Part shown: positions 12,648-61,522 of the stretch, in pieces
Layout: each line of letters opens with the position of its first letter
Numbering within the stretch: position 1 is the stretch's first letter
Assembly (NCBI GenBank): GCA_965552055.1
Contig: CBEVQO010000003.1
Coordinates: 64,001-128,000, forward strand
Reading direction: 5' to 3'
DNA from: an uncultured bacterium
Lineage (GTDB): Bacteria > Hydrothermota > UBA3073 > NMUJ01 > CBEVQO01
Length of the DNA stretch: 64,000 nt
Position numbers and translations under genes: made by a program
Notes under the pieces: model-generated
Databases searched by the model: none
What the model was told of the DNA's origin: nothing
The model's input: the letters and a program-made list of their open reading frames with translations, nothing else

Positions 12648-12654
12648 AAATTAC

Positions 12655-42291: not shown

Positions 42292-42292
42292 A

Positions 42293-42616
42293 TTACGAGC
42301 GAAGCGAGTGCATTACATATGGGTTGTGAGCCAACACCCCGAGCGGTGAGAGCGGAACAGCATTTTGAGAGCAGAGAGGGAGATTTTTAAGGGTAGTGGC
42401 AATAAAAGCGGGAGCTGGTTTTAGGTGCGATACTACATCATTATGGGGAGAGGTTATAGAGTGCGGTAGTGCAGTTTTTGATGTGATTGGGGTTTTGGTT
42501 GCGAACTTGCTTTATTACGGGTAGGGCATTTTAAAGAGCGGAAGTGCGGTCAAGGCTGTGCCTTGTGGTAGCGAGGGGTGTGCACGAGGGCGGTGGGGAC
42601 AGGGAGGTGGGGCTAA
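42293..42616 (+). repeat. Full copy (B) of the ~325-bp dispersed G-rich non-coding element (MITE/REP-like or structured RNA)
   Basis: Aligns end to end, roughly 90% by eye, with the reverse complement of 61097-61419. Confidence 0.92.
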
Positions 42617-42629
42617 TAATTATTATCGG

Positions 42630-42656
42630 TTGACATAAAAAAAATTTTGTTAAAAT
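42630..42656 (+). promoter_or_regulatory. Putative hypF promoter TTGACA-N15-TAAAAT, leaderless
   Basis: Extended TGn before the -10 box; GTG start 5 nt downstream; no SD. Confidence 0.65.
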
Positions 42657-42661
42657 AAAGC

Positions 42662-44887
42662 GTGGGATTTAAAATTTTGATAAAAGGAGTGGTGCAGGGA
42701 GTGGGTTTCCGTCCCTTTCTCTACAGAACAGCAACAAAATTTAATCTCAAAGGAATAATAAGAAATACTGCAAGAGGAGTTGAGATGTTAACAGATTGCG
42801 ATGAAAATACTTTGCAAAAATTGATAAAAGAAATAAAAGAAAAAGCACCGCCTTTATCGAACATAAAAGAAATAATTTATGAAGAGTGGGAAGGAAATCT
42901 GCCAGATGACTTACAAATCGTTGAGAGTGAAAATGAAGAATCGAAAAAAGTTTTAATACCGCCGGATATTGCACCATGTGATGAGTGTTTGAGAGAACTT
43001 TTTACTCTTACGGATAGAAGATATAGATACCCTTTTATAAACTGCACAAACTGTGGACCTCGCTTTTCCATAATAAAAGATATTCCCTATGATAGGGAAA
43101 AAACCACCATGAGCATTTTTATTATGTGTGATGAATGCAGGAAAGAGTATGAAGACCCCCTTAACCGTCGCTTTCACGCAGAACCAAACGCCTGTCCCAA
43201 ATGCGGACCCCAAATAACGCTTTATGACCCAAAAGGAAATTTGATAGAAAAGGGAGATAAAGCAATTAAACTTACACAAAAATTTATAAAAGAAGGCAAA
43301 ATAGGGATAATAAAAGGCATAAGCGGTATGCATATAGTTTGCGATGCAAGAAAAAAGGAAGCAGTTAGAAGAATAAGAGCGATAAAATTAAGAAAGACAA
43401 AACCATTTGCAGTTATGTGCAAAGATTTGGAAGAAGTTAAAAAAATTGCAAAAATTTCAAAGGAAGAAGAAAATATTTTGTTATCTCCACAGCGTCCGAT
43501 TGTGCTACTGAAAAAATCTCCAGATTATGACCTTGCAGAAGAAGTTGCTCCAAAAAATAGATATGTGGGTGTTATTTTGCCATATTCGCCTTTGCATTAC
43601 CTATTGATGGAAGATTTAGAATGCATAGTTGATACAAGTGCAAATATAACAGATGAACCCATTATTTATAAAAATGAAGAGGCATTTTCGAAGTTTAAGA
43701 ATAAAGTAGATTTTTTCCTTCTTCACAATAGAGAAATATTTATGAGATCTGATGATAGTGTGTTGCAGGTAGTGTCTGGCGAACCTCGTTTTATTCGTCG
43801 TGCAAGAGGATATTGTCCTTTGCCTTTTGAATTTGATGAGAAATTTCCACAAATATTGGCTGTGGGAGCTGAACTGAAAAATACATTTTGCCTTTCAAAA
43901 GAAAATCTTATTTTTATGAGTCAACATATAGGAGATTTGGCTGATTTTGAAACACTTTCTTTTTTTGAAGATGTTTTAAATCATTTTAAAAAGATTTTTG
44001 ACATCGAACCTCGAATTTGTGTTTGTGATATGCATCCAGATTACTTATCAACAAGGTGGGCACAGCAAAATTTCAAAAAAGTTTTGAAAGTTCAGCATCA
44101 TTATGCTCATATTTTGAGCTGTATTTTGGAAAATAATTTAAAGGGAAAAGTGATAGGTGTTGCTTTTGATGGTACCGGGTATGGTGCAGATGGCGCAGTT
44201 TGGGGTGGTGAATTTTTAATATGCGATGCAAAGAATTTTGAGCGTGTTTTTCATTTTGAATATGTGCCGATGCCCGGAGGTGAGAAAGCAGTAAAAGAAC
44301 CCCGTCGCATGGCTTTGAGTTATCTTTATCTTTCAGGATGTAAAGATTACATTCATAAAATATGGGATAAAAAGGAAGCAGAAGTTTTAATAAAGATGAT
44401 TGATAAAAAGATAAACTGTCCTTTAACTTCAAGTTGCGGAAGATTATTTGATGCTGTATCTTCAATTTTGAGAATTTGTGATTTTAATTCTTATGAGGGG
44501 GAAGCGGCTATAAATCTTGAAATGATTGCAGAAGGTAATCATCAAGTTTATTCATTTGAAATAGGAGACAAAAAAATAAGTTTTAAAAAGATGATAAGAG
44601 AAATAGTCAGAGATTTGAAAAGAGGAGCGCCTGCGAGCGAAATTTCTATGAAATTTCACAATACTATTTGTGAAGTGGTTAAAAAAGTTTGTTTAATTTT
44701 AAGGGAGAGATATGGAATAAATAAAGTGTGTTTATCTGGAGGTGTTTTTCAGAATAGAATATTATTTGAAAAATTGCTGGAAGATTTAAGGGAATTAAAA
44801 TTTGATGTGTATAGCAATTTTAAAGTTCCTGTTAATGATGCTGGTATATCGCTGGGTCAAATCTTGACATCGTTAGGATATGATTAA
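42662..44887 (+). CDS. hypF: [NiFe]-hydrogenase maturation carbamoyltransferase
   Basis: GVVQGVGFRPF, zinc fingers (NCTNCGPR, RRFHA.PNACP.CGP), RRARGY, QHHYAH, FDGTGYG.DG..WGGE and NDAGISLGQ. Confidence 0.97.
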   Translation: MGFKILIKGVVQGVGFRPFLYRTATKFNLKGIIRNTARGVEMLTDCDENTLQKLIKEIKEKAPPLSNIKEIIYEEWEGNLPDDLQIVESENEESKKVLIPPDIAPCDECLRELFTLTDRRYRYPFINCTNCGPRFSIIKDIPYDREKTTMSIFIMCDECRKEYEDPLNRRFHAEPNACPKCGPQITLYDPKGNLIEKGDKAIKLTQKFIKEGKIGIIKGISGMHIVCDARKKEAVRRIRAIKLRKTKPFAVMCKDLEEVKKIAKISKEEENILLSPQRPIVLLKKSPDYDLAEEVAPKNRYVGVILPYSPLHYLLMEDLECIVDTSANITDEPIIYKNEEAFSKFKNKVDFFLLHNREIFMRSDDSVLQVVSGEPRFIRRARGYCPLPFEFDEKFPQILAVGAELKNTFCLSKENLIFMSQHIGDLADFETLSFFEDVLNHFKKIFDIEPRICVCDMHPDYLSTRWAQQNFKKVLKVQHHYAHILSCILENNLKGKVIGVAFDGTGYGADGAVWGGEFLICDAKNFERVFHFEYVPMPGGEKAVKEPRRMALSYLYLSGCKDYIHKIWDKKEAEVLIKMIDKKINCPLTSSCGRLFDAVSSILRICDFNSYEGEAAINLEMIAEGNHQVYSFEIGDKKISFKKMIREIVRDLKRGAPASEISMKFHNTICEVVKKVCLILRERYGINKVCLSGGVFQNRILFEKLLEDLRELKFDVYSNFKVPVNDAGISLGQILTSLGYD

Positions 44888-44890
44888 AAT
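44864..44890 (+). promoter_or_regulatory. Putative promoter TTGACA-N15-TAAAAT, leaderless
   Basis: Lies in the last hypF codons; ATG at 44896 is 5 nt downstream. Confidence 0.62.
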
Positions 44891-44895
44891 GATTG

Positions 44896-45900
44896 ATGAC
44901 TTTAAGGCAAAAAATAATAGTTGCAATAGGGTGCATTATAGGGCTCATAACGCTTGGCACAATTGGTTATATGAAAATCGAGGGCTGGAATTTTCTGGAT
45001 TCACTTTATATGGTTGTCATTACGCTTACTTCTGTCGGTTTTTCAGAGGTTAAACCTCTTTCCACTGCTGGTAGAATTTTTACAATTGCTTTAATATTGA
45101 CAGGGCTTGGCACTCTTATGTATGCTGTTTCCACAATTGTTGCTTTATTACTTGAAGGTGAATTCATTGAATTACTTTATGAAAGGAGGGTTAAAAGGAT
45201 GATAGAAAAATTACAGGGACATTATATTGTGTGTGGATACAGTGATGTTGCCAAGTATGTTGTTGAGGAGTTGCAGCGCGCAGGTGCTGACTTTGTGATA
45301 ATAGTTCGTGGCGAAGAAAGGTATGAACTGTTGAAGCAAAGGCGGTTGCTGGTGATAAGAGGTATTCCTTTTGAAGAAGAAGTTCTTATTTCTGCTGGTA
45401 TTACCCGTGCAAGAGGATTATTCAGTTTGATGCATACAGACCAGGATAACCTTATTGTTGTGATAACGGCAAGGAGTTTGAACCCCTCTCTGCGCATAGT
45501 TACCTGTGCTTTTAGTGATGAAAGTGTGTCAAAGTTAGAGAAAGCAGGAGCTGATTCTGTTATATCTGTTAATGCGTTGAGTGGAGCAAGGATTGCAGCA
45601 GAGATGATGAGACCCGCTGTAGTAAGTTTTCTCGATTCTTTGCTTATCGAGAAGGAAAAGCATTTGAGGATAGAAGAAGTTGAAATTATGGAGGGAAGCA
45701 GGCTTATAGGTCAAACATTGCGTGAAGCACGCATACCGCAGAAAACAGGCCTAATTGTGATAGCAATAAAAGATGCGGAAGGCAGATTTAAATACAATCC
45801 AGGACCGGATGTAAAACTAAACCTTGGCGACAAAATAATAGTAATAGGAGACATCGAAAGAGTAAGAAAGTTAAAAGAAATAGCCCATTCGGAAGTTTGA
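44896..45900 (+). CDS. Two-TM potassium channel family protein with TrkA-N/TrkA-C (RCK) domains
   Basis: DSLY..VITLTSVGFSEV pore region, HYIVCGY, and C-terminal GLIVIAI...NP....L..GD. Confidence 0.9.
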   Translation: MTLRQKIIVAIGCIIGLITLGTIGYMKIEGWNFLDSLYMVVITLTSVGFSEVKPLSTAGRIFTIALILTGLGTLMYAVSTIVALLLEGEFIELLYERRVKRMIEKLQGHYIVCGYSDVAKYVVEELQRAGADFVIIVRGEERYELLKQRRLLVIRGIPFEEEVLISAGITRARGLFSLMHTDQDNLIVVITARSLNPSLRIVTCAFSDESVSKLEKAGADSVISVNALSGARIAAEMMRPAVVSFLDSLLIEKEKHLRIEEVEIMEGSRLIGQTLREARIPQKTGLIVIAIKDAEGRFKYNPGPDVKLNLGDKIIVIGDIERVRKLKEIAHSEV

Positions 45901-45904
45901 TTTA

Positions 45905-48900
45905 TTATTGTAGAACTCTATTTAAGGCTGTTTCAATGTTATCAATCCAATAATTTTCATATGATATTTTGGGAATTTTATTTATATCTGGGGTATAATA
46001 AAATAAGAATATTTTGACTTTGTAATTGGCTTTTTCATAAGGAAATTCTTTATTTTCTAAAATTTCTTTGTATCCTTCTATCTTTCGATCAGGGTCTCTA
46101 TATTCGATTCCTTTAGGATCAATAAACATAATGTAATATTTATTTAAATCTCGAGGTTTTAACCAGAATATAAAATCAGGTTTAAATTTTGATATTCTAT
46201 TTTCTCTGGAGTTGTAATAAGGGATGTAAACTTCGTCAAGATGTTCATCAATTTTTGAAAACACCCACCATTCAAACTTCTTAAATTTGTTATTATCTTT
46301 ATTTAAATACTCCTCAAGATGCTCTAAGAATTTTACTTCGCTCTTTGTTTTTATTATATGAGTGATATATTTAATTTTTTCTTCTACTGTCATTACAAGA
46401 GGTAAATAATAATGATTTGCAATATGTTTTATTTTAATTTTTTTGTTTCGTACTTCAAAAATTTCTTCTTTCTTCAGTTGTTGAGCTTTCCTCATATACT
46501 CTTCAGGAGGTATTTTGCCGTATTGTAATTCCAGTTCTCTTAATAATTCTGGATATTTCTTTACATTTTCAATTTTTTTCGTTAGTTCATCAATCTTATT
46601 TATTTCATCTATATAAACTTTTATATTTTTAAAATGCCTGATTTCATCTTCGAGTTCTTTCAATTCGTTAAATTCTTCGGGCATAATGTTGAAATAATCA
46701 AATATTCTTTGAATGATTAAATCTACATTTTTAAAACTTTTATCAGGTTCAATTCTGTAATATTTATCCTTATCCACAACACTCTGTCTTAAAATTTTTA
46801 TCTTTTCAGGTTCAGTATTATAGCGTACAAGTAGAATCCTGTCGTCATTTATAAAATTTAAAAATTTCTCAAGCATTTCGAAATCCTCTTTCGAGATCTA
46901 GAATTTGGTAAGTTCTCTTTTTCTTATAAGGGGATAATTTACTTCCTTGTATTTCGGAATTAAAAGTTTTTTGTTCTTAGCATTATTAGTAATGGTAAAC
47001 AGATTGCCTATTATCTTTTCGCCTTCTCTTTTGGCTTGAATTTTTAATTCTTTTATAACTTCTTTTATTGCATTTCTGTTTGTTCCAAATATAAATAATG
47101 TCTCAACAGGTAAAACGAAATTTTTAATTTTTTCGTACAATTCCTCGTCTATTTCTTTGTTATTATAAAGAAATTTTATTCTTTTTCTTTTGTCTTTTAC
47201 GGGTTCAATTCTTACACCCCTTCCTACAGACTGCAAAATGAATTTTTTAGCATCGGTTCCTGTTCCTATATTTATAAACATTATCACATTTGGTCTATTG
47301 GAATCCCAGCCCTCGTAAAAGCTTCGAGAACCCATTAAAATGTTAATATCCGAATCATCCCGATTTAAAGTTTCAAAATATCCTTCGTCATCAAATCTTT
47401 CATTTATTTCATATCCTGAGAATTCTTCTTTAAGCCATTTTGATATATCACCTATTTTTATCAATGCAAAAGGTTTATCAGATGTTTTTAATTTAAAAGC
47501 CATTTCTTTTTTATCTGAGGGTCTTATCAAAATTTCTATCCCTCCGGGTGAGGTTGAATTAAAAACATATTTTAAAATGTCTTCAAATTTTATATTTACA
47601 AACATATCCTTATCGATTCTTAAATTTTCTTCTTCGAACATAAATTTTGGCTCTTTTTTTAATTCTTCCCAAAGTTCGTCTATTGCGGAATTTAAGATTC
47701 TTTCATCAACTTCTCCTTTTCCTATTCTTTCTATTTCCCTGAAAAATAATTTCAAATCTGCATCCTCTGTGTTTACAGAATTTACAAGAGTTATGAGCAG
47801 GGGTTTATGATAAAGTTTTGAATCACATTGTGATAATCTTTCATAAAATTTCTTTGCATAAGTTAAAAGTATTAAGGATTTTAGAACTATTTTCTGTTTT
47901 TCTTCGGTGTTATAATCCTCATATTCTTCTCCTTTATCTCTGAAAGCCCTTACTTCCTGTTCGAGAACAAGAATATGCTTTCCGTGTCCTTCCTTTACAT
48001 AAGATGAGAGGTTGAACTCAAATGCCGTGGTTATTACATCTCTCGGGTCTGTAAATGTAGCTGAGAAATTAAATAAAAACCCATTCCTCGAAAGTATTGA
48101 GTAAATATGTTGTCTTTTTGATTCTTCTTTATCTCCTTTATGTGCCTCATCGAGAAAGATATACCATTTCCCATCATTGTCATAATTTTTGAAATCAATT
48201 ATTTTCTCTTTTTGCTCATCACTTAAATTATCAGAGCGATAATAAAAGACTGTTATCTCTTTTTCTCTAAAAAGCGAGGGATTTTCCCTTTTAACCGAGT
48301 CATACTCTTTTAACTCTCTTAACTTTATAAGAATATCGTGACTATTTGCATAATTGAATTCATTTATATGTCTTTTCAATTGTTCTATTAAGTCATCTCT
48401 ATGAGTTAGCACAAGGATATCATTGGGTGGGATTTCTTCCCTTTTAATTAAATCCCTTAGAATCTGAATCAGTTTAACAATCACGAGTGTTTTACCCGAA
48501 CCCGTAGCCATCCAGAAGCACATTCTGTTTATAAAATTTTCATAAGAAATTCTGAATTTTCTTTTTCTGTTTCTTCCATAATAAAGCTCTTCCACAGGAT
48601 AATAATTTTCGAGTAATTTTAAAAGTTTAGAATCTTCATCAAATTCAAGGTCAATTTTTAAATCAAGTCCGTTGTTTTTATACCATTCGTAAAATTTTCT
48701 TTTCCGTTCATTATTTATTCTGGGATTTTCAAATTTTTGATAATCAACAAAATCTTCATAGTATTTCCATAAAACCTTGATAGCATTTCTCAAAGCATTT
48801 TCTTGATAATCCCATAAAGTTTTTGTCTTTGAAAAGGTTTTAAAATTAAAAGAAATCCACTCTGAAGGAAGATTATCAAACCTTAAATTTTTAATCATCT

Positions 48901-48940
48901 CTTGGAGATAGATTCGTATTTTATCTGTTTTTTGACTCAT
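45905..48940 (-). pseudogene. res: Type III restriction enzyme Res subunit interrupted by an in-frame TAG at 46898-46900
   Basis: MATGSGKT, LDEAHKG, FSATF, EGWD and QSVGRG.R lie upstream; KPDF..IDPKG nuclease lies downstream. Both ORFs share one frame: ELTKF*ISKEDFEMLEKF. Confidence 0.85.
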
Positions 48941-48987
48941 TTATCCGCCTTTCATCTAGTGCTAATTTTCTTAGATTTTCATGTTTG

Positions 48988-49035
48988 TGTCCGATAAATG
49001 TCCGAAATATGTCTGATATGTCCGATAAATGTCTG
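48988..49035. repeat. Five TGTC(C/T)G direct repeats at ~11-bp spacing
   Basis: Motifs at 48988, 48999, 49010, 49019 and 49030. Confidence 0.7.
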
Positions 49036-49452
49036 TTATAACAACTCATATTTCGTACCCTTCTTTTTACCAATTTTTTTCAAAAGACTTCTGTTTACAA
49101 GTTCTTGTAAGTCTCTATATAAGGTCTTTTCCGAAACATCAGGTATCATATCTTTAAAAGCAGATAAACTTGCACTTTTATGTTCTTTTATATAGTTAAT
49201 TATCTTCATCTGTCTCTCATTCAATCCCATTTTTTTCAGATTTTCCTCGGTATAGATATCTTTATAAAATACAACTTTCATCACTCCGTATTCTTCAATA
49301 AAATCGGGCTCCGGCAATCCCTGTTTTTTGCAATTTTCAATAATTTTTAATGTTCCCCGTCCCCATGCCTCGATGAATCCTGCGTAATAGAAAACTCTCG
49401 CAAGAAGTTCATTTCTGGGTTTTGATAAATGTTCTTTTTTATTTCTTTTCAT
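49036..49452 (-). pseudogene. C-terminal fragment of an HATPase_c_4 + winged-HTH regulator (N-terminal domains missing)
   Basis: S.PRN.LLA.VF...G.IE.WGRG...I...C...GLPEP, then LNERQ..I and T..RDL.ELV...G..KGT.Y HTH. Confidence 0.65.
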
Positions 49453-49997
49453 TTTGTTTTATATCTAACTAACTGTTGTGATAAATCTTTTTTAACTATT
49501 CTGCGTAAAATTTCATCAATCGCTAAAACAGTTTCTTCGCTTATTTCAACAAATTTCCTGTATTCTCTTTCAGAGGCTTGTTCCATAATTTTGTGAATGT
49601 TTCCGAAATACCGATCAGGTTTTAGCCATGAGGCAGGGTGAACAAGATTTCGGGTCATTTGCACCCATTTTACCCAATTTCTAAACTCTCCTATGTTTTC
49701 AATTTGTTCTTTTAAAGGAAGCCATTTAAGTTCCTCGGCAATTTCTATGAGATCTTTTAGAGTAAATTCAAGAAAAATTCCTCTTTTTCTTTTAGTTTTT
49801 CGTTTCTTACTCTTATAAGTGTTAGTATTTCTTACTTTTTCGGGATAAGCAAAGCACATGGCTAAAAGTAATGCTTCTAAACTGGCTCCATATAAAATTA
49901 AAGATGCAATGTAACATTTGTTTTCATAACATTTTTGTGCCTCCTCAAAAAATTTTTGAGCCACATTCATAATTTTTTCTACGTCATAACCATTCAT
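49449..49997 (-). CDS. HEPN-like domain protein (putative RNase)
   Basis: ASLILYGASLEALL helix, L.DLI..A..L.W and RNLVHP (R-x3-H). Confidence 0.65.
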   Translation of the reverse strand: MNGYDVEKIMNVAQKFFEEAQKCYENKCYIASLILYGASLEALLLAMCFAYPEKVRNTNTYKSKKRKTKRKRGIFLEFTLKDLIEIAEELKWLPLKEQIENIGEFRNWVKWVQMTRNLVHPASWLKPDRYFGNIHKIMEQASEREYRKFVEISEETVLAIDEILRRIVKKDLSQQLVRYKTK

Positions 49998-52305
49998 AAA
50001 TCATTTTCAGAGTTGATTTGACATAATTTTCCAGTTCGTTTCGAGCATAGTCCGTTCTATAAGAAGCTGTAATACAACTATGATGCGAGTATTTTGAAAA
50101 ATCACATAAGTTGCTAAGTTCGTTTATAACCTCATCTTTATTACTATGTTTAAATTTTAACGAAGGATTATCTTTTATTTTCCTTAGTTTATTTACCATA
50201 CTTCCTAACCAACAATCTTCACCTAAATCTTTAAAAAATTGAAAATAATTAAATTTGAGTTTATCTTCTAAACAAATCCTAATTAGTCTTCTTATTTCGT
50301 CTAACGGTATTTCTTCCCCATTCAGGAAAGATTCTAATTTTGCAAGATTTTTAAAATATGGAAGTTTTTTATCCTCTTCAATATTCCATTTAATTATTTT
50401 TCCATTCTTAATTTGTAGACATTGCGGAGCAATCCCTATATCACGCAAAGTATCATATAATTCAAAAGCAAAAGTATTAAAATGAGTAAAAATGATCACT
50501 TGTTTTGCCTTTTTTGCCAAATCTCTTATAATTTCAATTGTTCGTCTTTTTCTATTAATATCAAAACTTGAAATAGGGTCATCAAATATGATGATTTTAT
50601 TTTGAAGGTCTCCATCTATATAGAGTTTTGCTATAAAAAACGATAGTGCAAGTCCATTTCTATCTCCTGCACTTAGAGCAAATTTAGTATGAGAGAGTGG
50701 ATTTATTTCTGCTCCTTCATATTCTAAGAAATATTCGAAATAAGGTTCTTTCCCTTTTCCTCTATATCTTGAAATTTGCTTGATAATTTTGAATGGGATG
50801 CCAAATTTTTCAAGAATTATGTTTGTTTTTTTACCGTATTTTTGTATTTTTTCAGAGACAGCAAATTTCAATTTTTCTTGATTCTCTCGGATTGTTTTTT
50901 TTATCTTATTTATTTCATTTTTAACATTTTTATATTCTTCACATAATCGCATAATTTCGGGAGAGAATCTTCGCTTTTTAATTTTAAGTTTTTCAAGTTC
51001 TTTCTCTAATTTCTCAATATCTGGTTGTTTTTCTTTTAATTCTGAGATTTGTGTATTTAAATTTTTGACTTTAAAATTATAATCTTCAATTGCTGTATTA
51101 AACTTTGAAACAATTTGTTGTAATTTATCTATATAATCTGTCTCTATAGGTGACAAGATTTTTTTGGATTTGTTTTCTAATGCTAATTTAACTTTTCGAA
51201 AATATTCATTTATTTTCGAGGAATATTCTTCAAACTTTTTTATCTCAAATATTTCTATATTCTTTATAAATCTTTTCCAAAACTCAAGCAATCCATTATT
51301 TCTTAAAATGATATTTTTAGCGTCATTTAATATGCGTTCAATATTAAATTTCTCAATTTTATACAAATATTGCTTAACCTCTTCGTCAATTTTCCTATAT
51401 TCTTGGTTAAAATATTGCTGATATGATTTAATCATAATTTCCGCTTTTGTAAGGTCTTGCTGACAAAAAGGACATTTGTTATCCTTTACGTGTTCTACTA
51501 CTAATAATCCTTGATGTATCCACTCTTCAGCTTTTTCTCCTATGGCATTAACAAGTTTATTTATATGTTGTTTTGTTTTTTGCAATGCGTCTTCTGAAAT
51601 TGTAGTTAATGATTTTTTTAAAATTGTTTTTAGAATATTTAAATCAAAAGGTAAAGAGAATTTAGGAATTTCTTTTAAATTTTCTTTCTGTCTAATCTCA
51701 GAAAATTCTTTTGCTATGTTAATTTTATGTTCTTTTTCTTGAATTTTTTCATCTATCTCCGGATCTTCAGTCAAATTAATATAAGTTTCTACATCAAAGT
51801 TGTTTTTTATTAATATTTCTATTTGGTTCTCTAACTTTTCTAATTTAGGGTATTTTTCTGATTGCAATTCTTCTTTTATTTTTTCAATTTCTTTCGCTAA
51901 TTCCACGCCTTCTTCGCCCATAACAAATCCATATAAACGTTTTTGATGTTCTGGAAATATTTCCATTCCTGTGTATACATTTTCATTTACAAAAAATTCA
52001 TCAAAAATTTCTATGTTTTTTAATTCATTTTTCCAATTACTCCAGTTACCAGTTTGAAATCTAAATACTTCATTATTGCTAAATAATAATTCAATATACG
52101 GTTCATCGTTGGCTCCAAAAGTTTTTTTCTTTAAAATCAAATCTGGATTATTAAGATGTAAAGAACGCACTATAGATACTAAAGTACTTTTTCCTACACT
52201 GTTTTCTCCATAAATTATATTAACTTTATGTAAACTAATGTCTCCTGAGGCGGAAAAATTTCTGAATTTTCCTACATTTCTGATTTTAATAAACTTTTTA
52301 ATCAT
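49984..52305 (-). CDS. RloC-like Rad50-type ABC ATPase (AAA_13) with zinc hook; putative anticodon nuclease
   Basis: Walker A GENSVGKS, coiled coil with CPFCQQ, signature LSAGDR, Walker B IIFDDPISSFD, IFTH, and C-terminal R..LE...SHH. Confidence 0.75.
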   Translation of the reverse strand: MIKKFIKIRNVGKFRNFSASGDISLHKVNIIYGENSVGKSTLVSIVRSLHLNNPDLILKKKTFGANDEPYIELLFSNNEVFRFQTGNWSNWKNELKNIEIFDEFFVNENVYTGMEIFPEHQKRLYGFVMGEEGVELAKEIEKIKEELQSEKYPKLEKLENQIEILIKNNFDVETYINLTEDPEIDEKIQEKEHKINIAKEFSEIRQKENLKEIPKFSLPFDLNILKTILKKSLTTISEDALQKTKQHINKLVNAIGEKAEEWIHQGLLVVEHVKDNKCPFCQQDLTKAEIMIKSYQQYFNQEYRKIDEEVKQYLYKIEKFNIERILNDAKNIILRNNGLLEFWKRFIKNIEIFEIKKFEEYSSKINEYFRKVKLALENKSKKILSPIETDYIDKLQQIVSKFNTAIEDYNFKVKNLNTQISELKEKQPDIEKLEKELEKLKIKKRRFSPEIMRLCEEYKNVKNEINKIKKTIRENQEKLKFAVSEKIQKYGKKTNIILEKFGIPFKIIKQISRYRGKGKEPYFEYFLEYEGAEINPLSHTKFALSAGDRNGLALSFFIAKLYIDGDLQNKIIIFDDPISSFDINRKRRTIEIIRDLAKKAKQVIIFTHFNTFAFELYDTLRDIGIAPQCLQIKNGKIIKWNIEEDKKLPYFKNLAKLESFLNGEEIPLDEIRRLIRICLEDKLKFNYFQFFKDLGEDCWLGSMVNKLRKIKDNPSLKFKHSNKDEVINELSNLCDFSKYSHHSCITASYRTDYARNELENYVKSTLKMIYEWL

Positions 52306-52308
52306 ATT

Positions 52309-54816
52309 TCACCACCATATCAAATCTTTAACATATTTATAAAACATCTCCTTTTTTCCATCCGGCAACTCCACATATTCAAGATTTTTCGGGTCAATCT
52401 TCGTCCCGTCTTCAAGCTCAGCATAATCCTTTGTTATCTTTTTAATCCATTTGCCCAGTAGATTTGAGAGTGTTTCAACAATGTCTATTTCCTTTCCATC
52501 TTTTTCTTTTGAATAAAGTTTTGAGAAATCAACTTTTACTTTGTTATTCTCATAATCAATTTCAAGACATTCGAGCATTTTCGGGTCTTTCATAAAAATA
52601 TACTGGCTATATGGGTCTTCATAGGGATTTTCAAATAAATCAGAATCTTCATATTTTGCTTTTCTTAAAACATCTTCATACTGTTCAAGTTCGTAATATT
52701 TGAAAAATCCGCCCGCATTTTTCTCATTATATTTTTCCTTAACATCCTTTTCTTTTGAAATTCCCGACTTGTCATAAAATAAAACCTTTTTCATTCTTGG
52801 TAAAACAACGGTATAAAAATGCTCTCCAACCTCAATCCCTATCCATTTTCTTTTTAACTTATGAGTCACAGCGCATGTTGTGCCGGAACCTAGAAAGAAA
52901 TCCATAATTAAATCTCCTTCATTTGAAGTGGATTCTATCACGCGCTTTAAAAGGATTTCAGAATTTTCGGTTTTAAAATGCCAATTAAATGAATAACCTG
53001 AAATATCTGTCCAATTAGTTCCGGGGGCTTTTTTATCCAGCAATATATAAAGTTTTCCATTTTTGATTTTTAATCGACCTTCTTTATACATTCTATTGGC
53101 TACCTCGTTTCCTCTAGCCCAGCAGTAGCCTTTTCGTGGATAAAAAACTTGATTCTCAATAATAATAGGTTTACCCGTTTGACCTCGGTTAGGCTTCTCC
53201 TGCATTAATACCCATTGCGGTTCTCTTTCAATCCAAATTCTTTTGAAAAAGATCAAATTATGATTTTTACAGTAATTTATTAAGCTTTCAGTTTCTTGCT
53301 CTAGATTGTTTACCTCTCTTTTTGCTAAATAAGCAGTTTTCTTTAAAATTATCTCATTCCTAAAATTTTCCCCTCCAAAAATCTCATTCATCAATAACCT
53401 CACATACATATTTCCATTGTAATCGCACCTTACAAATATGCTTCCTGTATCTTTTAATAAATCTTTTGCTATTCTTAATCTGTTTTCAAGCATTGTTATC
53501 CATGTTGCATCTTTGTATTTAACCGAATAGAAGTAATCCGCGTCCTGTTCTTTGTTAAAAGGCGGGTCTATGTAAATTGTCTGAACCTTTTCCCTGAATT
53601 TATTTAATATGGTGTTAAGTGCCTGATAATTCTCAGATTTTATTAACCAGCCATCAAGGGATTCGTCAAGATTATCAAATAATGATAAAATTTCGATCTC
53701 CAAATCTTTAAAATACTTTGTGTCAATCGGAAGGAATCTGTATTTTTCATTTAAATTTTTACCCGTTAAATCTTCTTTTAAAATTTCTTTCCTTAAATCG
53801 GATTCTTTTAATTTATCCTCAATTATTCCGAGTTCTTTCCATTCCTTCACTTGCTCCCCGAAATTTGGATGTTCAAGTATTTTCTCAACGATTAACTTTT
53901 CGTTTTTCGCTTTTGACTTTTCTTTCTCAAAAATCCTATCAAGGGTTATCACATAATTTGAGTTAAAAACAAATTTCGGTTTGTTCCAAATTTTCACAAG
54001 TTCGTTTTCAAATTGAGAAATGAATCTGATTATTTTATATGCAATATCTTTTAAAATCTGTAATTCTTTTATTCTTTTTTCAGTCCATTCACTTTTTTCT
54101 TTAAAAACATATTGATAAAGCCATAAATCAAATTGCTCTTTTAAAAATTCTTCTGCATTTTTGTTTATAAAATAGTCAACTTCGCTTTGTCTTTCAAAAA
54201 CTTTAAAGGCTCTTTCCAGGATATCTGTAGTGATTTTAATACCGTGTTTTTTGAGTTCTTTTATTATTTTTTCAACATTCGTTTTTCTCCCTCTTTCTGT
54301 GTAAAGAACATTAAAAACAATTGTTTTATCTTTTTGAATTTCTTTAAACTCATAAATTAATTCTCTTTTTTCAGTTGCCTTTTTATGTTCAAGTTTGGAA
54401 ACATCAAAATAAAATTTGAAGCCATCTATTTCTGTTCCCATATTTTTAAAAATCCTATCGGTTTTAACATAATAAAGCATTCTTGTTTTCCAGAAAAGGA
54501 TTACATCTTTGTCATCAGTATAAATTTTGTCATAAATACTTTGATGTAAAGGAGTATAATCAAAATAAATGGAACCACTTTTAGAGAAATAACGAGAAAA
54601 GAAAGTATAAAGCTTATCAAATAATTCCTCACGAAATTCTGGAAATTCTTTAAGGGCTGCTTCAATATCTCTTTGTAATTTGGGAAATACCCCTTTCTCG
54701 AAATATTTAGACTTAATTTTCATTAAATTGATATAACCTGATTCGCCCTCTATTTTTTCACCTATAAATACTTCTTTTAAGGCATCATAAAATTTTTTCT
54801 CTTTTTGGATCATCAT
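52309..54816 (-). CDS. mod: Type III RM DNA methyltransferase (Mod)
   Basis: IKSENYQAL, YIDPPFN, K.ENSE.LL.R.I and DFFLGSGTT motifs; upstream of res. Confidence 0.92.
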   Translation of the reverse strand: MMIQKEKKFYDALKEVFIGEKIEGESGYINLMKIKSKYFEKGVFPKLQRDIEAALKEFPEFREELFDKLYTFFSRYFSKSGSIYFDYTPLHQSIYDKIYTDDKDVILFWKTRMLYYVKTDRIFKNMGTEIDGFKFYFDVSKLEHKKATEKRELIYEFKEIQKDKTIVFNVLYTERGRKTNVEKIIKELKKHGIKITTDILERAFKVFERQSEVDYFINKNAEEFLKEQFDLWLYQYVFKEKSEWTEKRIKELQILKDIAYKIIRFISQFENELVKIWNKPKFVFNSNYVITLDRIFEKEKSKAKNEKLIVEKILEHPNFGEQVKEWKELGIIEDKLKESDLRKEILKEDLTGKNLNEKYRFLPIDTKYFKDLEIEILSLFDNLDESLDGWLIKSENYQALNTILNKFREKVQTIYIDPPFNKEQDADYFYSVKYKDATWITMLENRLRIAKDLLKDTGSIFVRCDYNGNMYVRLLMNEIFGGENFRNEIILKKTAYLAKREVNNLEQETESLINYCKNHNLIFFKRIWIEREPQWVLMQEKPNRGQTGKPIIIENQVFYPRKGYCWARGNEVANRMYKEGRLKIKNGKLYILLDKKAPGTNWTDISGYSFNWHFKTENSEILLKRVIESTSNEGDLIMDFFLGSGTTCAVTHKLKRKWIGIEVGEHFYTVVLPRMKKVLFYDKSGISKEKDVKEKYNEKNAGGFFKYYELEQYEDVLRKAKYEDSDLFENPYEDPYSQYIFMKDPKMLECLEIDYENNKVKVDFSKLYSKEKDGKEIDIVETLSNLLGKWIKKITKDYAELEDGTKIDPKNLEYVELPDGKKEMFYKYVKDLIWW

Positions 54817-54818
54817 AA

Positions 54819-54845
54819 ATTTTACTTAAATATTATTGTTGTCAA
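54819..54845 (-). promoter_or_regulatory. Putative mod promoter TTGACA-N15-TAAAAT, leaderless
   Basis: TT-ATG-ATG follows (54816 and 54813). Confidence 0.65.
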
Positions 54846-54855
54846 GAATAAAATC

Positions 54856-55332
54856 TTACAAATTCGACCACTTTTGTGCGAGTTCGTCTCTGCGAGGTTT
54901 ATAAACTTTTTCGTAGAACAGGCGCTGTGATTTCAATACATCTTCGCCTGCTTCTTTACAAATTTTTACCGCTTCTTCCCATGCTTTATCAAATTTGCCA
55001 CCAAATCTTTTCTCAATTTGGCGTTCAAAATCTTTCTCTGTTTGTATTTCGCCGCCTATTGTAAAATACTTTTTGCCTTCGATTTCCACACAAAAAGCCA
55101 TTTCATCACCAACTTTGAATTGCTCTATTTTCAACTCTTTCTTATATTTCCTTTTATATTCGGGTTTTAATTCTACGGGTTTTTGTATCTTTTTGAATCC
55201 TTTCTTTGCTGCTGCATAAAATATTGCACGATTTAAACCAAAACTTTTTGCAGATTCCAAAGGAAGTAGATTAAGGACATAAACTCTTGCTGCCTGCAAT
55301 GTAGCCATAACCTGAAACCTACCTACCATCAT
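54856..55332 (-). CDS. Conserved hypothetical protein
   Basis: Likely start 55332/55329 (MVGRFQVMATLQAAR..GLNRAIFYAAAK). The longer track ORF overlaps the next gene. Confidence 0.7.
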   Translation of the reverse strand: MMVGRFQVMATLQAARVYVLNLLPLESAKSFGLNRAIFYAAAKKGFKKIQKPVELKPEYKRKYKKELKIEQFKVGDEMAFCVEIEGKKYFTIGGEIQTEKDFERQIEKRFGGKFDKAWEEAVKICKEAGEDVLKSQRLFYEKVYKPRRDELAQKWSNL

Positions 55333-55334
55333 TA

Positions 55335-55396
55335 TTTTTATGCAAAAGAGAAATTTGTCAATAAGAATCTTGACAAAGTATATAAATGAGTAAAAT
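55335..55396. promoter_or_regulatory. Back-to-back divergent promoters: TTGACA-N15-TAAAAA (minus) and TTGACA-N15-TAAAAT (plus)
   Basis: tgtcaa at 55356-55361 and ttgaca at 55370-55375; starts at 55329 and 55403. Confidence 0.6.
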
Positions 55397-55402
55397 AGGT
55401 TG

Positions 55403-56605
55403 ATGATTAAAAGACTAAAAGTTAAAAATTTTAAGAGTTTTAAAGAAATTGATGTTAACTTGGGCAGATTTAATGTTTTAATAGGACCAAATGCTTCTGG
55501 GAAAACAAATTTTACCCAGATTTTTAATTTCATAAGAGATATTATAAATTTAGGTTTAGAGGATGCAATATTTTCTCAAGGAGGTCCCAATTATATTCGT
55601 AATTTAAATTGCAAAGAAGATTTTTTGACAATAAATATTTCGTTAGATGAAAAATTATCTCTACATAGGAAAGGGACTCCTTTTGGGATAAATATAGAAG
55701 AAACAGAATATGAGATAGATATTTCTTTTCGAGGTAAAAGTCAATTCATAATAGATAGGGAAATAATATTTGAACATTGCGAATTTATTGACACAGAAAA
55801 AAAAGAAGCGAATAAAGGATTTATAAAAGTTTTGAGAGAAAGAAATGATGTAAAAGTTGAAATAAATTCTCCTGAAAATTTTCCTCTAAAAGAAAATGAT
55901 ATATGTTCGCCTTTACTTCCACAAATAATAGGAAAATATAGTTTACTACGCATGATCTCTCCGCCCTTTGCAGACCAGTTTTTAAAATTAAATAAAATAA
56001 AAGTATTTAACATTAATCCTCAAGAGGCAAAGAAAAATAGACCTATCTCAGGAAGATTGTCATTAGAAGAGGATGGAAGCAATTTGCCTCTTATCCTGAA
56101 AAACATATTAGAAGATGATGAGAAGAGGAATAAATTGTTAAATTTAGTGAATGACATTTTACCTTTTGTAGAAGATATTATTATAGAAAAAAGGTTCGAA
56201 GAGAAAGAGTTATCGTTTAAATTGTATGAAAAATATTTAATGGAAGATATTCCTTCGTCTTTGATATCTGATGGTACTATTAACTTAATTATTATGATAA
56301 TCATGCTTTATTTCGAGAAATTGCCGCTTGTTATAATCGAAGAACCTGAAAGAAATATTCACCCATCCATAATTTTTCGAATAGTAAACATGATGAAAGA
56401 AGCATCAAAAGATAAACAAATTATTATTACAACACATAATCCATTATTTGTAAAGTATGTTGATTTGGAAAATTTACTTTTGATAAAAAGAGATGAGGAA
56501 GGAAACTCTGTAATAACTTGTGCAGAAGAACATGAAGAAATAAAAATATTTTTGGAAAATGAAATAGGTCTGGATGAACTTTTTGTGAAAAATATATTAT
56601 CATAG
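55403..56605 (+). CDS. AAA_21/AAA_15 ABC-type ATPase (defence-associated family)
   Basis: NFKSF, GPNASGKTN, L..DGSNL, SDGT, IEEPE..IHP and ITTHNP motifs. Confidence 0.88.
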   Translation: MIKRLKVKNFKSFKEIDVNLGRFNVLIGPNASGKTNFTQIFNFIRDIINLGLEDAIFSQGGPNYIRNLNCKEDFLTINISLDEKLSLHRKGTPFGINIEETEYEIDISFRGKSQFIIDREIIFEHCEFIDTEKKEANKGFIKVLRERNDVKVEINSPENFPLKENDICSPLLPQIIGKYSLLRMISPPFADQFLKLNKIKVFNINPQEAKKNRPISGRLSLEEDGSNLPLILKNILEDDEKRNKLLNLVNDILPFVEDIIIEKRFEEKELSFKLYEKYLMEDIPSSLISDGTINLIIMIIMLYFEKLPLVIIEEPERNIHPSIIFRIVNMMKEASKDKQIIITTHNPLFVKYVDLENLLLIKRDEEGNSVITCAEEHEEIKIFLENEIGLDELFVKNILS

Positions 56606-56608
56606 TAA

Positions 56609-57139
56609 ATGGAATATAAGCTCCTTTTCATATTCGTTGAGGGAGAAAATGAAATGAGATTTTTTGAAAGAATGCTTGAACCTCTATTAAAACAAAAATA
56701 TTCTTGCATTAAAATTGTTCCTTATTCCAAAAAAGAAAGAAAATGGGATTGGATAAATGATTTTATTAGATCAATCAACAAGATGAAATTTGCCAGTTAT
56801 ATTTTTGTGACAGATATAAATACTGCTCCATGCGTTGCTGCAAGAAAAGAAGAAATAAAAAATAAAATTCGAAATATCTCTGATGATAGAATAATGGTAG
56901 TGGTGAAGGAAATCGAAAGTTGGTATATGGCTGGAGTAAGCGAAAATTTTCTCAGCAAAAATAAAATAAAGGTACCTAAAAATACCGATGATTTCATGAA
57001 AGAAGATTTTGAAAAAATTATTCCTAAAAAATTTTCAAAAAGAGAATTTTTAATAGAAATGTTAAAGTATTTTTCATGTGAGAGAGCCCAAAAGAAAAAT
57101 AAATCGTTTAAATATTTTATGACAAAATTCGATTGCTGA
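56609..57139 (+). CDS. TOPRIM-like partner protein (DUF4276/RloB-like)
   Basis: IFVEG..E, FVTD.N, KEIESWY.AG and N.SF..F motifs. Confidence 0.65.
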   Translation: MEYKLLFIFVEGENEMRFFERMLEPLLKQKYSCIKIVPYSKKERKWDWINDFIRSINKMKFASYIFVTDINTAPCVAARKEEIKNKIRNISDDRIMVVVKEIESWYMAGVSENFLSKNKIKVPKNTDDFMKEDFEKIIPKKFSKREFLIEMLKYFSCERAQKKNKSFKYFMTKFDC

Positions 57140-58244: not shown

Positions 58245-58250
58245 CACATT

Positions 58251-58323: not shown

Positions 58324-58328
58324 AACAG

Positions 58329-61100
58329 ATGAACCGCTATCGCATCGAAATAAAAAGTAAATCACAGTCAGAAGCACAAATTTTAAAAGAAAATATTAAA
58401 TTACTGGGGATAGATGCAAAAGAAGTTCAGATAACTTATTGCTATTATTTATTTGGGGATATAGAAAAAAGTGATGCAGAATTCATCGCCGATAAAATTT
58501 TGAGAGACAAAGTTGATGAAGAATTTAAAATAAATGAAAAATTTCCTTTTAGCGGATTTGAGGTAGAAATCGCTTACAAACCCGCAGTAAAAGACCCCAC
58601 AGCGGAAAGCACAGAATACATATTATCGGAATTCGGATATAATGTAAAGGTTAGAAGGACAAAAAGATATTGCATAAAAGGAATAACAGAAAAGGAATTT
58701 ACAGAAATAAAAAAGAGATTGCTTTATAACGACCTTATTGAAGAAGAAGTAAAAGATGTGCAAATCTTAACTCCACCCGATTATAAATTTGAACTTATAC
58801 AAATACCACTACTTGAATGCAAAGATTTAAAGGATTTAAGCGAAAAAATGGCACTATTCTTATCGGAAAAAGAGATGAAAGTTATACAGGATTATTTCAG
58901 GGAAAAAGGCAGGAATCCCACCGATGCAGAACTCGAGACATTCGGAGCTATATGGTCGGAACATTGCTCTCACAAAACATTAAAAGCAAGGGTTAAATAT
59001 GGTGATAAGAAATTTGAAAATTTATTACGGGATACAATAATGAAGGCAACAGAAGAACTTAAAAAAGATTATATTCTTTCTGCATTTTCAGATAATGCAG
59101 GTGTTTATGAGTTTGATGAAAAATGGGGAATTGCTTTCAAAGTAGAGACACACAATCATCCTTCTGCTCTTGAGCCTTATGGAGGTGCATCAACAGGTAT
59201 CGGTGGTGTTATAAGGGATGTGCTCGGATGTGGACTCGGTGCTACACCAATTGCAAATACAGATGTATTTTGCTTTGCTCCGCCTGACATATCTTATTCT
59301 GAATTGCCTCAAGGTGTGCTCCATCCTTTGAGGATAGCAAAAGGCGTTGTAGCAGGTGTGCGTGATTATGGAAACAAAATGGGCATACCCACTGTAAATG
59401 GTGCGGTTATTTATGATAAAAGGTATATAGGAAATCCTGTTGTATATTGCGGATGTATAGGGCTTATCCCAAAGGATAAAATTAAGAAAAAGACAAACCC
59501 AGGTGATTACATCGTGCTTGTAGGGGGACTTACGGGCAAAGATGGCATACATGGTGCTACATTCTCATCAACAGGTTTAACATCTGAATCACAGGACAAA
59601 TTCATAGCAGCAGTCCAAATCGGTGACCCCATTACAGAGAAGCGTTTGCGGGATGCACTCATTGAAGCGCGCGACAAAAATCTATACACAAATATTACAG
59701 ATTGCGGAGCAGGGGGGATATGTGTTGCTGTTACAGAGATGGCAAGGGATACAGGTGCAGAAGTGCAGCTCAATAAAGTCCCATTAAAATACAAAGGATT
59801 AACTTATAGGGAAATATGGGTGTCAGAATCTCAGGAAAGAATGATATTGGGATGTCCACCTCAAAACCTCCAAAAATTGAAAGAAATATTTGAAAAATAT
59901 GGAGTAAAAGCCACGCCAATAGGCAGATTCAGGAATGACAAAAGATTAATTGTAAAATATGAGGATAAAGTTGTTGTGGATATGGATGTAGATTTTATTT
60001 TCAAAAAGCAACCAAAATTTGAGTTTGAATTTGAAGAAAGAAAAATTGAAGAAAAAGAGGTTGATTTACCGGAATTCGATGTTAAAGAAGTTTTACTAAA
60101 AGTGTTATCGGATTATAATATTCGCAGTAAGGGCTGGATAGTCCATCAGTATGACCACGAGGTTCAGGGTGGCACGGTAATAAAGCCATTGCTCGGTGAT
60201 GCAGCAGTTATAAAGCCACTTCTTAATGTAGATAAAGGAATAGCTATAGGTTGTGGCATAAATCCCTTTTATTCCCGCAATCCCTATCGTATGGCATTTT
60301 GCTGTGTAGAGGAAGCAATTCGCAATGTTGTGGCTGTGGGAGGCGACCCCCAAAAAGTTGCACTGCTCGACAATTTCAGCTGGGGCAAACCCGAAGGCGA
60401 AAAAATGCAGGCGATAATAGAGGTATGCATGGCACTTTATGATACATCAAAAGAATTTTCTGCTCCATTTTTCGCAGGAAAAGATAGTTTAAATAATGAG
60501 TTCGAAGTAGATGGCAAAAGAATATCCATTCCACATACATTGCTCATATCTGCGATAACCATTGTGCCGGATGTCAAAAAAGCAGTAGATTGTATATTTA
60601 AAAAAGAAGGAAATCCAATATATTTACTTGGGATAACGAGGGATGAATTGGGAGGCTCTGTTCTTCACAGGATACTCGGAATAGATGAAGGCGTAACTCC
60701 CTGTGTCTATCCATCGGAATCAAAGAAAATTTTCCAAAGTTTACATTGTGCCATCAAAGAAGGTTTAGTTTTATCGTGTCATGATTTATCGGATGGTGGG
60801 CTGGCAGTTGCTCTATGTGAGATGTGTATCTGTGGCTGGCATCAACATATAAAACCACTTGGTGCGAAAATAGATTTGTGGAGTATACTCGTAGATGGAA
60901 ATTTAACCTTTGAAAAAATTTTATTTTCAGAGTCACAGGGACGCTTTCTTGTAGAGGTTGATAGAGATAAAGAAAAAGAGTTCCTCGATATAATGTCAGG
61001 AGTTCCGCTTTCACGGATAGGAGTTGTAACATCAAAAGATTATGTTGAAATAGGTGAATTAAAGATTTCTCTTTCAGAATTAATAAGAAGTTATTTTTAG
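58329..61100 (+). CDS. purL: Phosphoribosylformylglycinamidine synthase subunit PurL with N-terminal PurS-like domains
   Basis: WSEHCSHK, KVETHNHPSALEPYGGA.TG.GG..RD, DCGAGG, SESQERM, QYDHEVQ, GKDSL.N and HDLSDGGL. Confidence 0.96.
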   Translation: MNRYRIEIKSKSQSEAQILKENIKLLGIDAKEVQITYCYYLFGDIEKSDAEFIADKILRDKVDEEFKINEKFPFSGFEVEIAYKPAVKDPTAESTEYILSEFGYNVKVRRTKRYCIKGITEKEFTEIKKRLLYNDLIEEEVKDVQILTPPDYKFELIQIPLLECKDLKDLSEKMALFLSEKEMKVIQDYFREKGRNPTDAELETFGAIWSEHCSHKTLKARVKYGDKKFENLLRDTIMKATEELKKDYILSAFSDNAGVYEFDEKWGIAFKVETHNHPSALEPYGGASTGIGGVIRDVLGCGLGATPIANTDVFCFAPPDISYSELPQGVLHPLRIAKGVVAGVRDYGNKMGIPTVNGAVIYDKRYIGNPVVYCGCIGLIPKDKIKKKTNPGDYIVLVGGLTGKDGIHGATFSSTGLTSESQDKFIAAVQIGDPITEKRLRDALIEARDKNLYTNITDCGAGGICVAVTEMARDTGAEVQLNKVPLKYKGLTYREIWVSESQERMILGCPPQNLQKLKEIFEKYGVKATPIGRFRNDKRLIVKYEDKVVVDMDVDFIFKKQPKFEFEFEERKIEEKEVDLPEFDVKEVLLKVLSDYNIRSKGWIVHQYDHEVQGGTVIKPLLGDAAVIKPLLNVDKGIAIGCGINPFYSRNPYRMAFCCVEEAIRNVVAVGGDPQKVALLDNFSWGKPEGEKMQAIIEVCMALYDTSKEFSAPFFAGKDSLNNEFEVDGKRISIPHTLLISAITIVPDVKKAVDCIFKKEGNPIYLLGITRDELGGSVLHRILGIDEGVTPCVYPSESKKIFQSLHCAIKEGLVLSCHDLSDGGLAVALCEMCICGWHQHIKPLGAKIDLWSILVDGNLTFEKILFSESQGRFLVEVDRDKEKEFLDIMSGVPLSRIGVVTSKDYVEIGELKISLSELIRSYF

Positions 61101-61419
61101 CCCCGCCTCCCTGTCCCCACCGCCCTCGTGCACACCCCTCGCTACCGGGGCACAGCCTTAACCGCACTACCGCTCTTTAAATGCCCTCCCCGTAATAAGT
61201 CAAGTTCGCAACCAAAACCCCAATCACATCAAAAACTGCACTACCGCACTCTATAACCTCTCACCATAATGAATGTAGTATCGCACCTAAAACCGGCTCC
61301 CGCTTTCATTGCCACTACCCTTAAAAATCTCCCTTTCTGCTCCCCAAATGTAGTTCAGCTCTCACCGCTCGGGGTGTTGGCTCACAACCCATATGTAATT
61401 GGCTCGCTTACGCTCGCAT
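61097..61419 (-). repeat. Full copy (C) of the dispersed G-rich element, inverted relative to copy B
   Basis: Reverse complement matches 42293-42616; its terminal TTAG contains the purL stop codon. Confidence 0.92.
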
Positions 61420-61453
61420 TAAAAATTTAAAAATTTAACGCTTCTAAATTGTG

Positions 61454-61522
61454 GTTCTGCTCTCACCGCTCGAGGTATTGACTTACAGCCCATATGAAAT
61501 TTGCTCGGCTTCGCCTCGCAAT
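61454..61522 (-). repeat. Partial copy (D): head ~70 bp of the same element
   Basis: Reverse complement TTGCGAGGCGAAGCCGAGCAAATTTCATATGGGCTGTAAGTCAATACCTCGAGCGGTGAGAGCAGAAC matches the 5' end of copies B and C. Confidence 0.8.

Follow-up and report, generated by a model that had tools for sequence, protein, structure and literature searches.

A mosaic, G-rich intergenic repeat family of a Hydrothermota genome and its possible spread as folded single-stranded DNA

Repeat copies in a 64-kb window

The window analysed here is a stretch of 64,000 nucleotides (C3:64001-128000) from the 2.23-Mb, 15-contig, 97% complete genome assembly of an uncultured Hydrothermota bacterium; labels C1-C9 in coordinates denote contigs of this assembly. 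The host genome is ~35% GC. Its best public holders are hydrothermal-vent metagenomes, and none of the holders listed is an RNA dataset. The window contains several copies of a short G-rich repeat, which we have followed through the whole genome. Each copy has a head and a tail, named in the order in which they are read on the G-rich strand, with a variable body between them. The copies and associated features are as follows.

12404..12477, plus strand: outer head (12412-12427) and inverted 48-bp body module (12428-12475), forming a composite 5′ of copy C
12478..12651 (core 12486-12647), plus strand: copy C, complete at 162 bp, one of the 24 copies of the '160' subfamily, with no difference from C1:385298-385459
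42141..42177, plus strand: decayed element-body fragment 5′ of the A/T array, common to three paralogous loci
42178..42292, plus strand: A/T array of 5.5 units of 21 bp, adjoining the head of copy A
42287..42620, plus strand: copy A, complete long (~320-bp) element, from sequence and alignment
42295..42309, plus strand: hairpin 1 of copy A, with AC/GT stem, tandem GA/GA, GC/GC stem and GAA triloop; predicted DNA mini-hairpin
42334..42581, plus strand: stem-loop 2 of copy A, with arms 42334-42344 and 42571-42581 and a second tandem GA/GA
42588..42612, plus strand: tail of copy A, whose four G-runs match the canonical quadruplex motif and are predicted to fold
61093..61425, minus strand: copy B, complete long element, from sequence and alignment
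61440..61526, minus strand: copy D, head and ~60 bp of long body, the outer head of a composite, cut where copy B starts

Copies A and B were first noticed in a sequence-only reading of the window, which aligned 42293-42616 (plus) with 61097-61419 (minus) from end to end and remarked on the G bias of one strand. Both observations stand: the two are 91.6-91.8% identical (E 5e-135), and copy A contains 124 G, 79 T, 76 A and 43 C. Two other pieces have to be redrawn. The segment 12411-12647, taken for a copy retaining only its ends, instead consists of a complete copy of another subfamily preceded by an outer head and an inverted module, and this pairing of outer head and inverted module recurs at four or five further loci. 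The segment 61454-61522, taken for a head alone, also includes the start of a long body; judged by its sequence, copy D is an older copy truncated at the start of copy B. The 21-bp array and the decayed fragment beside it (~42141-42177) had been missed. As for coding capacity, no open reading frame (ORF) of at least 90 aa lies within copies A and C, as had been stated for the element at large, but a 137-aa antisense ORF, without a Pfam match, extends into the tail end of copy B. The same tail provides the TAG stop (61098-61100) of the purL-like gene at 58329-61100. No transposase was found among the 33 of 70 window ORFs scanned with Pfam, nor did any genome-wide family match fall inside the window, in agreement with the earlier reading.

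Stem-loop 2 of copy A holds a 226-bp insert in place of the 7-base CT-GAA-AG loop of short copies. Metagenome contigs link 42342 to 42573 over 7 letters, that is, they have the short cap instead of this insert, and other metagenome contigs skip the array at 42178-42292. The array accompanies several copies, on the head side. Look-alikes of it lie within coding regions at C3:49913-50017, C7:27204-27256 and C8:87898-87994; their hosts are an Mfd-like gene, a WD40 protein and an 845-aa protein, in which they read as K/I/F-rich heptads and may reflect chance codon bias.

Next to the array, a gene at 39057-42158 encodes a 1033-aa beta-helix protein with three 309-bp immunoglobulin-like repeats. Its three paralogues (C1, C3 and C5) share the promoter of this gene, and each adjoins a different version of the repeat. 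A defence cluster occupies 46898-57139 and 61918-64000, with a type III-like helicase, an AAA_13 protein, a DNA methylase and an AAA_21 and DUF4276 pair; a type I restriction subunit begins just past copy D.

Family structure and predicted folding

Copies were collected by scanning the genome for the tail motif and pairing each tail with a head, and by nhmmer searches with head and tail profiles. The motif scan returned 70 tails, 69 of them with a head, and the profiles returned 92 head and 71 tail matches, which bears out the high copy number anticipated from the window. There are 69 complete copies of 64-466 bp, falling into classes of ~68, ~100, ~160, 190-270, ~320 and 415-466 bp, and ~23 additional heads. 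Median identity to the nearest copy is 92%. Masking covers 87 loci and 15.5 kb, or 0.70% of the genome, an upper bound that includes some A/T-array matches inside genes. Of the 70 tails, 69 stop at the same base, and all but one are paired with a head.

Outside this species the family was not encountered. BLAST found it in none of 40 related genomes and the head motif in none of 200 genomes of the phylum; a model of the repeat gave five single weak matches in 140 phylum genomes, of which four were inspected, one being attC/REP-like and three looking like chance. Searches with exact motifs gave no match to either of two motifs in GTDB contigs, none to one motif in plasmids and, in viral contigs, no family copy, the matches being one chance match in coding sequence and one lone head-like hairpin. 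Rfam has no match in the window at the gathering threshold, or on copies at six loci at E up to 5, Flavo-1 included. Nine metagenome loci do carry the repeat, all 93-100% identical to the host genome and of the same species. The family that the sequence-only reading could not place is therefore not in the libraries searched, but as a small mosaic intergenic repeat it is of a known kind; such repeats are common, many have no known mover, and the kind is thus an ordinary one. Lone hairpins of the GA/GNA design described below, without a tail, are seen at L067:1205-1314, in another genome of the phylum, and at L046:1501-1522, on a phage contig.

On the G-rich strand, a copy opens with a T-run and hairpin 1; a short TTAC-containing spacer, TGGG and a variable stem-loop come next, and then a G-run tail ending CTAA, followed by WAAT. 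Hairpin 1 could be parsed in 66 of 69 copies. It consists of a 2-bp stem (GC/GC in 49, AC/GT in 16, a mismatch in 1), tandem GA opposite GA, an inner stem of 2-4 bp (GC/GC in 45, GGC/GCC in 20, GGGC/GCCC in 1) and a loop of GNA (38) or GNNA (28). All 78 occurrences of the motif in or near copies are on the G-rich strand, with none on the opposite strand. Stem-loop 2 repeats this design, is preceded in 13 copies by a TGTC tag, and is capped by CT-GAA-AG or CC-GAA-GG in the 100-bp copies; long copies have 90-370 bp instead, their middles being 11% C. The 64-74-bp copies are reduced to hairpin 1 and the G-run tail. In an alignment of 15 copies of ~100 bp, 98.4% of cells in the two hairpins are paired, with 11 double changes and no one-sided change, a level that none of 500 shuffles reached; these counts are drawn from related copies and are to be taken as support rather than as a probability. 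The covariation that the earlier reading had proposed looking for is thus seen as paired double changes, none of which is a G-U wobble.

The G-runs of the tail are near invariant, and the loops between them vary. A strict quadruplex motif is present in 44 of 69 tails (8.3 in shuffles), and all 69 have one if loops up to 12 are allowed. The genome as a whole has 67 canonical quadruplex motifs, 45 of which lie inside copies, so that the ends of this one family amount to two thirds of the total. Passages of PMC13037366 describe GCGNAGC/GCGNNAGC as DNA mini-hairpins that are much less stable as RNA and that are present at single-stranded DNA (ssDNA) priming sites. We infer three folds for the G-rich strand as DNA: a GNA mini-hairpin that includes tandem G-A pairs, a stem-loop, and a G-quadruplex.

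It is also possible that the product is RNA, either as a multicopy non-coding RNA, the option raised from the window, or as an intermediate copied by a reverse transcriptase. As RNA, the G-rich strand gives a better fold than the complementary strand, 26 of 66 hairpin loops are GNRA, the stem of the '160' subfamily contains a G-T pair, and the combination of a looser 5′ side and a fixed 3′ end is like that of target-primed copying. Against this stand the predominance of GNA triloops, the lack of wobble changes, the absence at copy A of an inward promoter or a following intrinsic terminator, and the lack of both a reverse transcriptase in the assembly and an Rfam match. Overall, the hairpin motif looks like DNA rather than RNA, and we consider an RNA very improbable.

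Ends, possible insertion, module shuffling and the search for a mover

Both ends of the element lie in A/T-rich sequence, with conservation tapering off into A/T runs on either side. The sequence-only reading had found no terminal inverted repeats, which holds for longer ones; there is an imperfect 8-bp inverted repeat consisting only of A/T, with a mean of 6.2/8 matches. No target duplication was detected (flank match 5.77, versus 5.75 in shuffled flanks); a TA duplication may still be present. A stop-codon test for the exact ends gave no clear register. Inspection by eye, guided by pairing rules, turned up candidates for a target tetranucleotide and a hairpin-foot guide, which do not covary. 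Insertion at the junction of an A-run and a T-run would be the simplest reading of these ends. A classical DDE-type miniature inverted-repeat transposable element was rejected as an identity: there are no inverted repeats of at least 10 bp and no target duplication, and the five DDE families searched (DDE_1, IS1595, rve, DDE_3 and ISL3) all gave 0 matches in the assembly.

Nearly all copies are intergenic, in 26 divergent, 36 tandem and 6 convergent contexts, similar to the 150, 285 and 42 of all gaps. A -35 box adjoins 46 of 69 copies. Of the 28 genes converging on a tail, 12 end in the tail's TAG; only 4 of 1849 element-free genes end in a matching TAA context, which suggests that the element supplies the last codons of those genes and so writes the final residues of 12 proteins, that of purL in the window included. 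One could suppose that copies are kept as regulatory DNA, with the C-rich strand loading Rho behind genes and the G-rich strand insulating neighbouring promoters. The -35 boxes and the shared stops would suit such a role, Rho is present in the genome, and in tandem contexts genes read into the C-rich strand more often than not (24 versus 12, p 0.065). However, the context classes are like those of gaps in general, 200 relatives are without the family, and the spread of the copies is left unexplained. Moreover, because A-tracts upstream of -35 boxes are also normal in element-free promoters, target taste together with survival suffices for the association. Retention as regulatory DNA seems improbable to us.

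Heads of the different types are combined with bodies at random (p 0.33), and body and tail are tightly linked (p ~1e-14). In another strain, represented by metagenome locus L017, other modules lie behind the right junction that is found at C7:90848. Sorted by hand, the profile matches include 11 extra heads, each upstream of a complete copy, but no extra tail inside a composite. Left flanks are held in common by 5 clusters (14 of 69 copies) and right flanks by 1 cluster (2 copies); a sixth left pair and one further right match, to a truncated copy, fall outside this count. At five loci that differ in their genes and in their tail flanks, the head side is occupied by one and the same promoter block, which at one of them is the start of an integron-like integrase gene.

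We tentatively favour, at somewhat less than even confidence, a non-autonomous element that is spread as folded ssDNA and moved in trans by an HUH-type enzyme (Y1, Y2 or like the REP-associated tyrosine transposases, RAYTs) that is absent from the assembly. The asymmetric ends, the replaceable middle and an ssDNA intermediate, all part of the sequence-only reading, fit the evidence; mobility itself is something we infer. On this model the tail would act as an obligatory, fixed boundary and the head as a leaky one, and read-through past the head would take outer heads, the A/T array, promoters and the beginnings of genes along to other places in the genome. Insertion would take place at A-run/T-run junctions, with copies surviving where they are harmless, upstream of -35 boxes and at gene ends, and later gene conversion between copies would shuffle heads relative to bodies.

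The mover was sought by scanning protein families one at a time against the assembly. RT, resolvase and DUF559 gave 0 matches, the genome ORF set contains neither an HUH motif nor a multicopy transposase, and no RAYT or Ssn gene is present, the sole PF01541 match being a 581-aa UvrC-like protein and not a single-domain GIY-YIG protein. Recombinases that are present comprise XerC, XerD, one IS110 and the integron-like integrase. An origin from XerCD/dif was rejected, as no dif site was found and the orientation of the arms does not fit. The genome also has tandem arrays of three to six small paralogous genes (C4:142545-145183, C2:89129-90619, C8:2787-4298 and C5:102931-104054), which we take to be HEPN/PaREP1-like.

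The integron-like integrase deserves separate consideration. It lies in an island at C9:28340-36000. The enzyme is IntI-like, has a HARP domain and shows an internal in-frame deletion; in the orientation of its gene, the island also contains a restriction-modification pair of the AccI type and more cassettes, with attC-like sites between them; a decayed sister island lies at C7:29400-32700. The repeat might be an attC derivative spread by this tyrosine integrase, whose gene (TIGR02249 3e-66, below cut-off) starts beside the copy at C9:28184 and precedes the cassette array. The attC-like sites of the array share the GA-GC-GNNA-GC-GA hairpin of the repeat, in one case a head flank is joined to half an attC, the promoter block of the integrase adjoins a head at five loci, and integrases able to insert cassettes outside att sites have been described, to go by parts of a preprint (bioRxiv 10.1101/2022.09.11.507474). 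On the other hand, the copies have no paired RYYYAAC/GTTRRRY boxes, in a scan so insensitive that it also missed attC-like sites seen by eye; the enzyme lacks ~24 internal residues relative to its homologues; it is most similar to archaeal relatives (74%); 250 phylum genomes contain a single close homologue, upstream of which no such element lies; and the five promoter-block loci possibly stem from one insertion. We judge this origin decidedly unlikely.

A single intact insertion sequence (IS), an IS110 element of the IS1111 type, lies at C6:126330-127600 with outward -35 and -10 boxes in its ends, and some ten remnants of its left end are also present. A hairpin related to the non-coding one of this IS stands at the close of the rRNA operon, at C5:37460, next to a copy of the repeat. 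This is the genome's one full-length IS110 gene, with both domains, and three repeat copies lie behind an IS110 left-end motif, so one may ask whether the repeat is its miniature passenger. IS110/IS1111 elements use circles and defined targets, according to sections of PMC11187229, which was counted in favour. As the ends and the non-coding region of the IS share no sequence with the head or tail of the repeat, the repeat was rejected as an IS110/IS1111 mini-element, and we regard dependence on this recombinase as exceedingly improbable.

Several observations weigh against movement as ssDNA by an HUH-type enzyme. In this near-complete assembly Y1_Tnp gave 0 matches, as did TnpB, Rep_trans and Rep_OBD; Y2_Tnp also gave 0, in a search whose control matched only below the cut-off. 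No clean empty site or circle junction was found in the nine metagenome loci, among paralogues or, for copies A and C and among the matches listed, in contigs of five runs. Standard DNA folding assigns hairpin 1 no significant stability (z -0.97 to 0.91), the covariation comes from related copies, 25 of 69 tails lack the strict quadruplex motif, and the tail has no hairpin, unlike IS200/IS605 ends. IS200/IS605 elements prefer the lagging-strand template; the strand of the repeat shows no link to local GC skew (34 versus 35), nor is there the C-to-T excess on the G-rich strand that deamination of an exposed strand would leave. The flank asymmetry is weak, with p 0.02 if counted as 9 events to 1 and p 0.22 as 5 clusters to 1, and duplication with homologous recombination can also give it. 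Finally, if the G-rich strand were displaced in rolling-circle transposition, its transfer would begin at the head and take along DNA from the tail side, the opposite of what is observed; capture on the 5′ side of the G-rich strand fits template copying better than displacement.

Two candidate empty sites, L019 and L015, were rejected, their differences from the host genome being gene-sized deletions. L019 has, beside a tRNA cluster, a 1.18-kb island (L019:2247-3425) of another strain that is missing from the host (C1:340794-340803) and contains a nucleotidyltransferase-like gene, a decayed repeat copy and an aspartyl-protease-like gene. At C2:287630-287690 a right-flank-like tract and a -35 box come immediately after a decayed head, possibly a body-less site; this copy (C2:287676), a single decayed case, hints at excision of the body only.

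The direction of capture led us to consider repair as an alternative that needs no dedicated enzyme. The folded G-rich strand would stall forks or attract nicks, host repair would copy it into A/T tracts by microhomology, with the tail annealing first and synthesis stopping at the mini-hairpin, and gene conversion would shuffle the modules. This would account for head-side capture, the gradual fading into A/T runs at both ends, the free assortment of heads beside linked bodies and tails, the replaced modules behind one right junction in L017, and the lack of an enzyme in the assembly. It is harder to reconcile with the near-uniform stop of the tails, all but one with a head, and repair alone would seldom keep such ends or compensatory pairs. 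We hold it to be unlikely.

A further step would be to see in the repeat a new class of minimal ssDNA element: at the obligatory end a G-quadruplex would take the place of the hairpin, the leaky stop would be a GNA mini-hairpin, promoters, gene starts and integron-like islands would be spread by read-through around a compact thermophile genome, and the enzyme would be one not so far described. This is a rather unlikely proposal as it stands. Were the quadruplex the recognised end, it would be a type of transposon end that we did not find in the literature searched, where work on structured ssDNA motifs and quadruplex-bearing miniature elements was sought and nothing relevant turned up. Three traits make the family notable and are testable: a DNA-type fold on one strand, a conserved quadruplex-like end, and one-sided carriage of promoters and genes.

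Comparison with known systems

One parallel in behaviour is with IS91 and ISCR elements, which, as portions of PMC13181058 describe them, have unlike ends (oriIS and terIS), make no target duplication, terminate leakily and undergo one-ended transposition. Like them, the repeat has unlike ends of which one is fixed, no duplication, a palindrome at the leaky end, and neighbouring DNA apparently carried on one side. Unlike them, it has no transposase gene, in the element or in the assembly, and no clear target tetranucleotide; its fixed end is a G-run tract, its fold is confined to one strand, and it measures only 64-466 bp. We rejected membership on the enzyme (no Y2 transposase, with the weak control noted above) and on end structure.

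Palindrome-associated transposable elements (PATEs), ends-only derivatives of IS200/IS605, offer a second comparison. From what is given in parts of PMC7290912, the repeat resembles them in being small and gene-less, in having neither long inverted repeats nor duplication, and in its DNA hairpin near one end and A/T-rich left junction. Unlike PATEs, it has no right-end hairpin, TnpA or GC-skew strand bias, no covarying guide was found, and it has conserved A/T bases on both sides. Membership was rejected, as hairpins at both ends and a Y1 TnpA are missing.

Repetitive extragenic palindromic (REP) sequences, the bacterial interspersed mosaic elements (BIMEs) built from them, and CGTC-type repeats, including SRM/NTS with SsnA, are likewise intergenic, lineage-specific and mosaic, with strand-specific hairpins (PMC3733652; PMC11893778). 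The TGTC tag before stem-loop 2 in 13 copies recalls the CGTC type. The repeat differs from these groups in its fixed head-body-tail order, its quadruplex tail, and its lack of inverted dimers and of a GTAG tag. It was not assigned to REP/BIME, as there is no RAYT gene and the foot of the hairpin has no GTAG, or to SRM/Ssn, as the 3′ part of the SRM pattern is unmatched in stem-loop 2 (by eye) and no single-domain GIY-YIG gene is present; the CGTC comparison was made without the consensus figures of PMC3733652.

Two likenesses concern the hairpin itself. The host's own attC-like sites share the tandem-GA/GNNA hairpin on the folded strand. Unlike attC sites, the repeat is dispersed rather than arrayed, has a G-run tail, and gave no paired RYYYAAC and GTTRRRY core boxes closing the hairpin in the insensitive scan, and on this ground it was not classed as attC. 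The loop and closing pairs are also those of the d(GCGNAGC) mini-hairpins at the ssDNA priming sites of phage G4 and ssiA, the CC-GAA-GG variant included, as far as sections of PMC13037366 describe them; unlike those sites, the hairpin of the repeat sits inside a dispersed chromosomal repeat.

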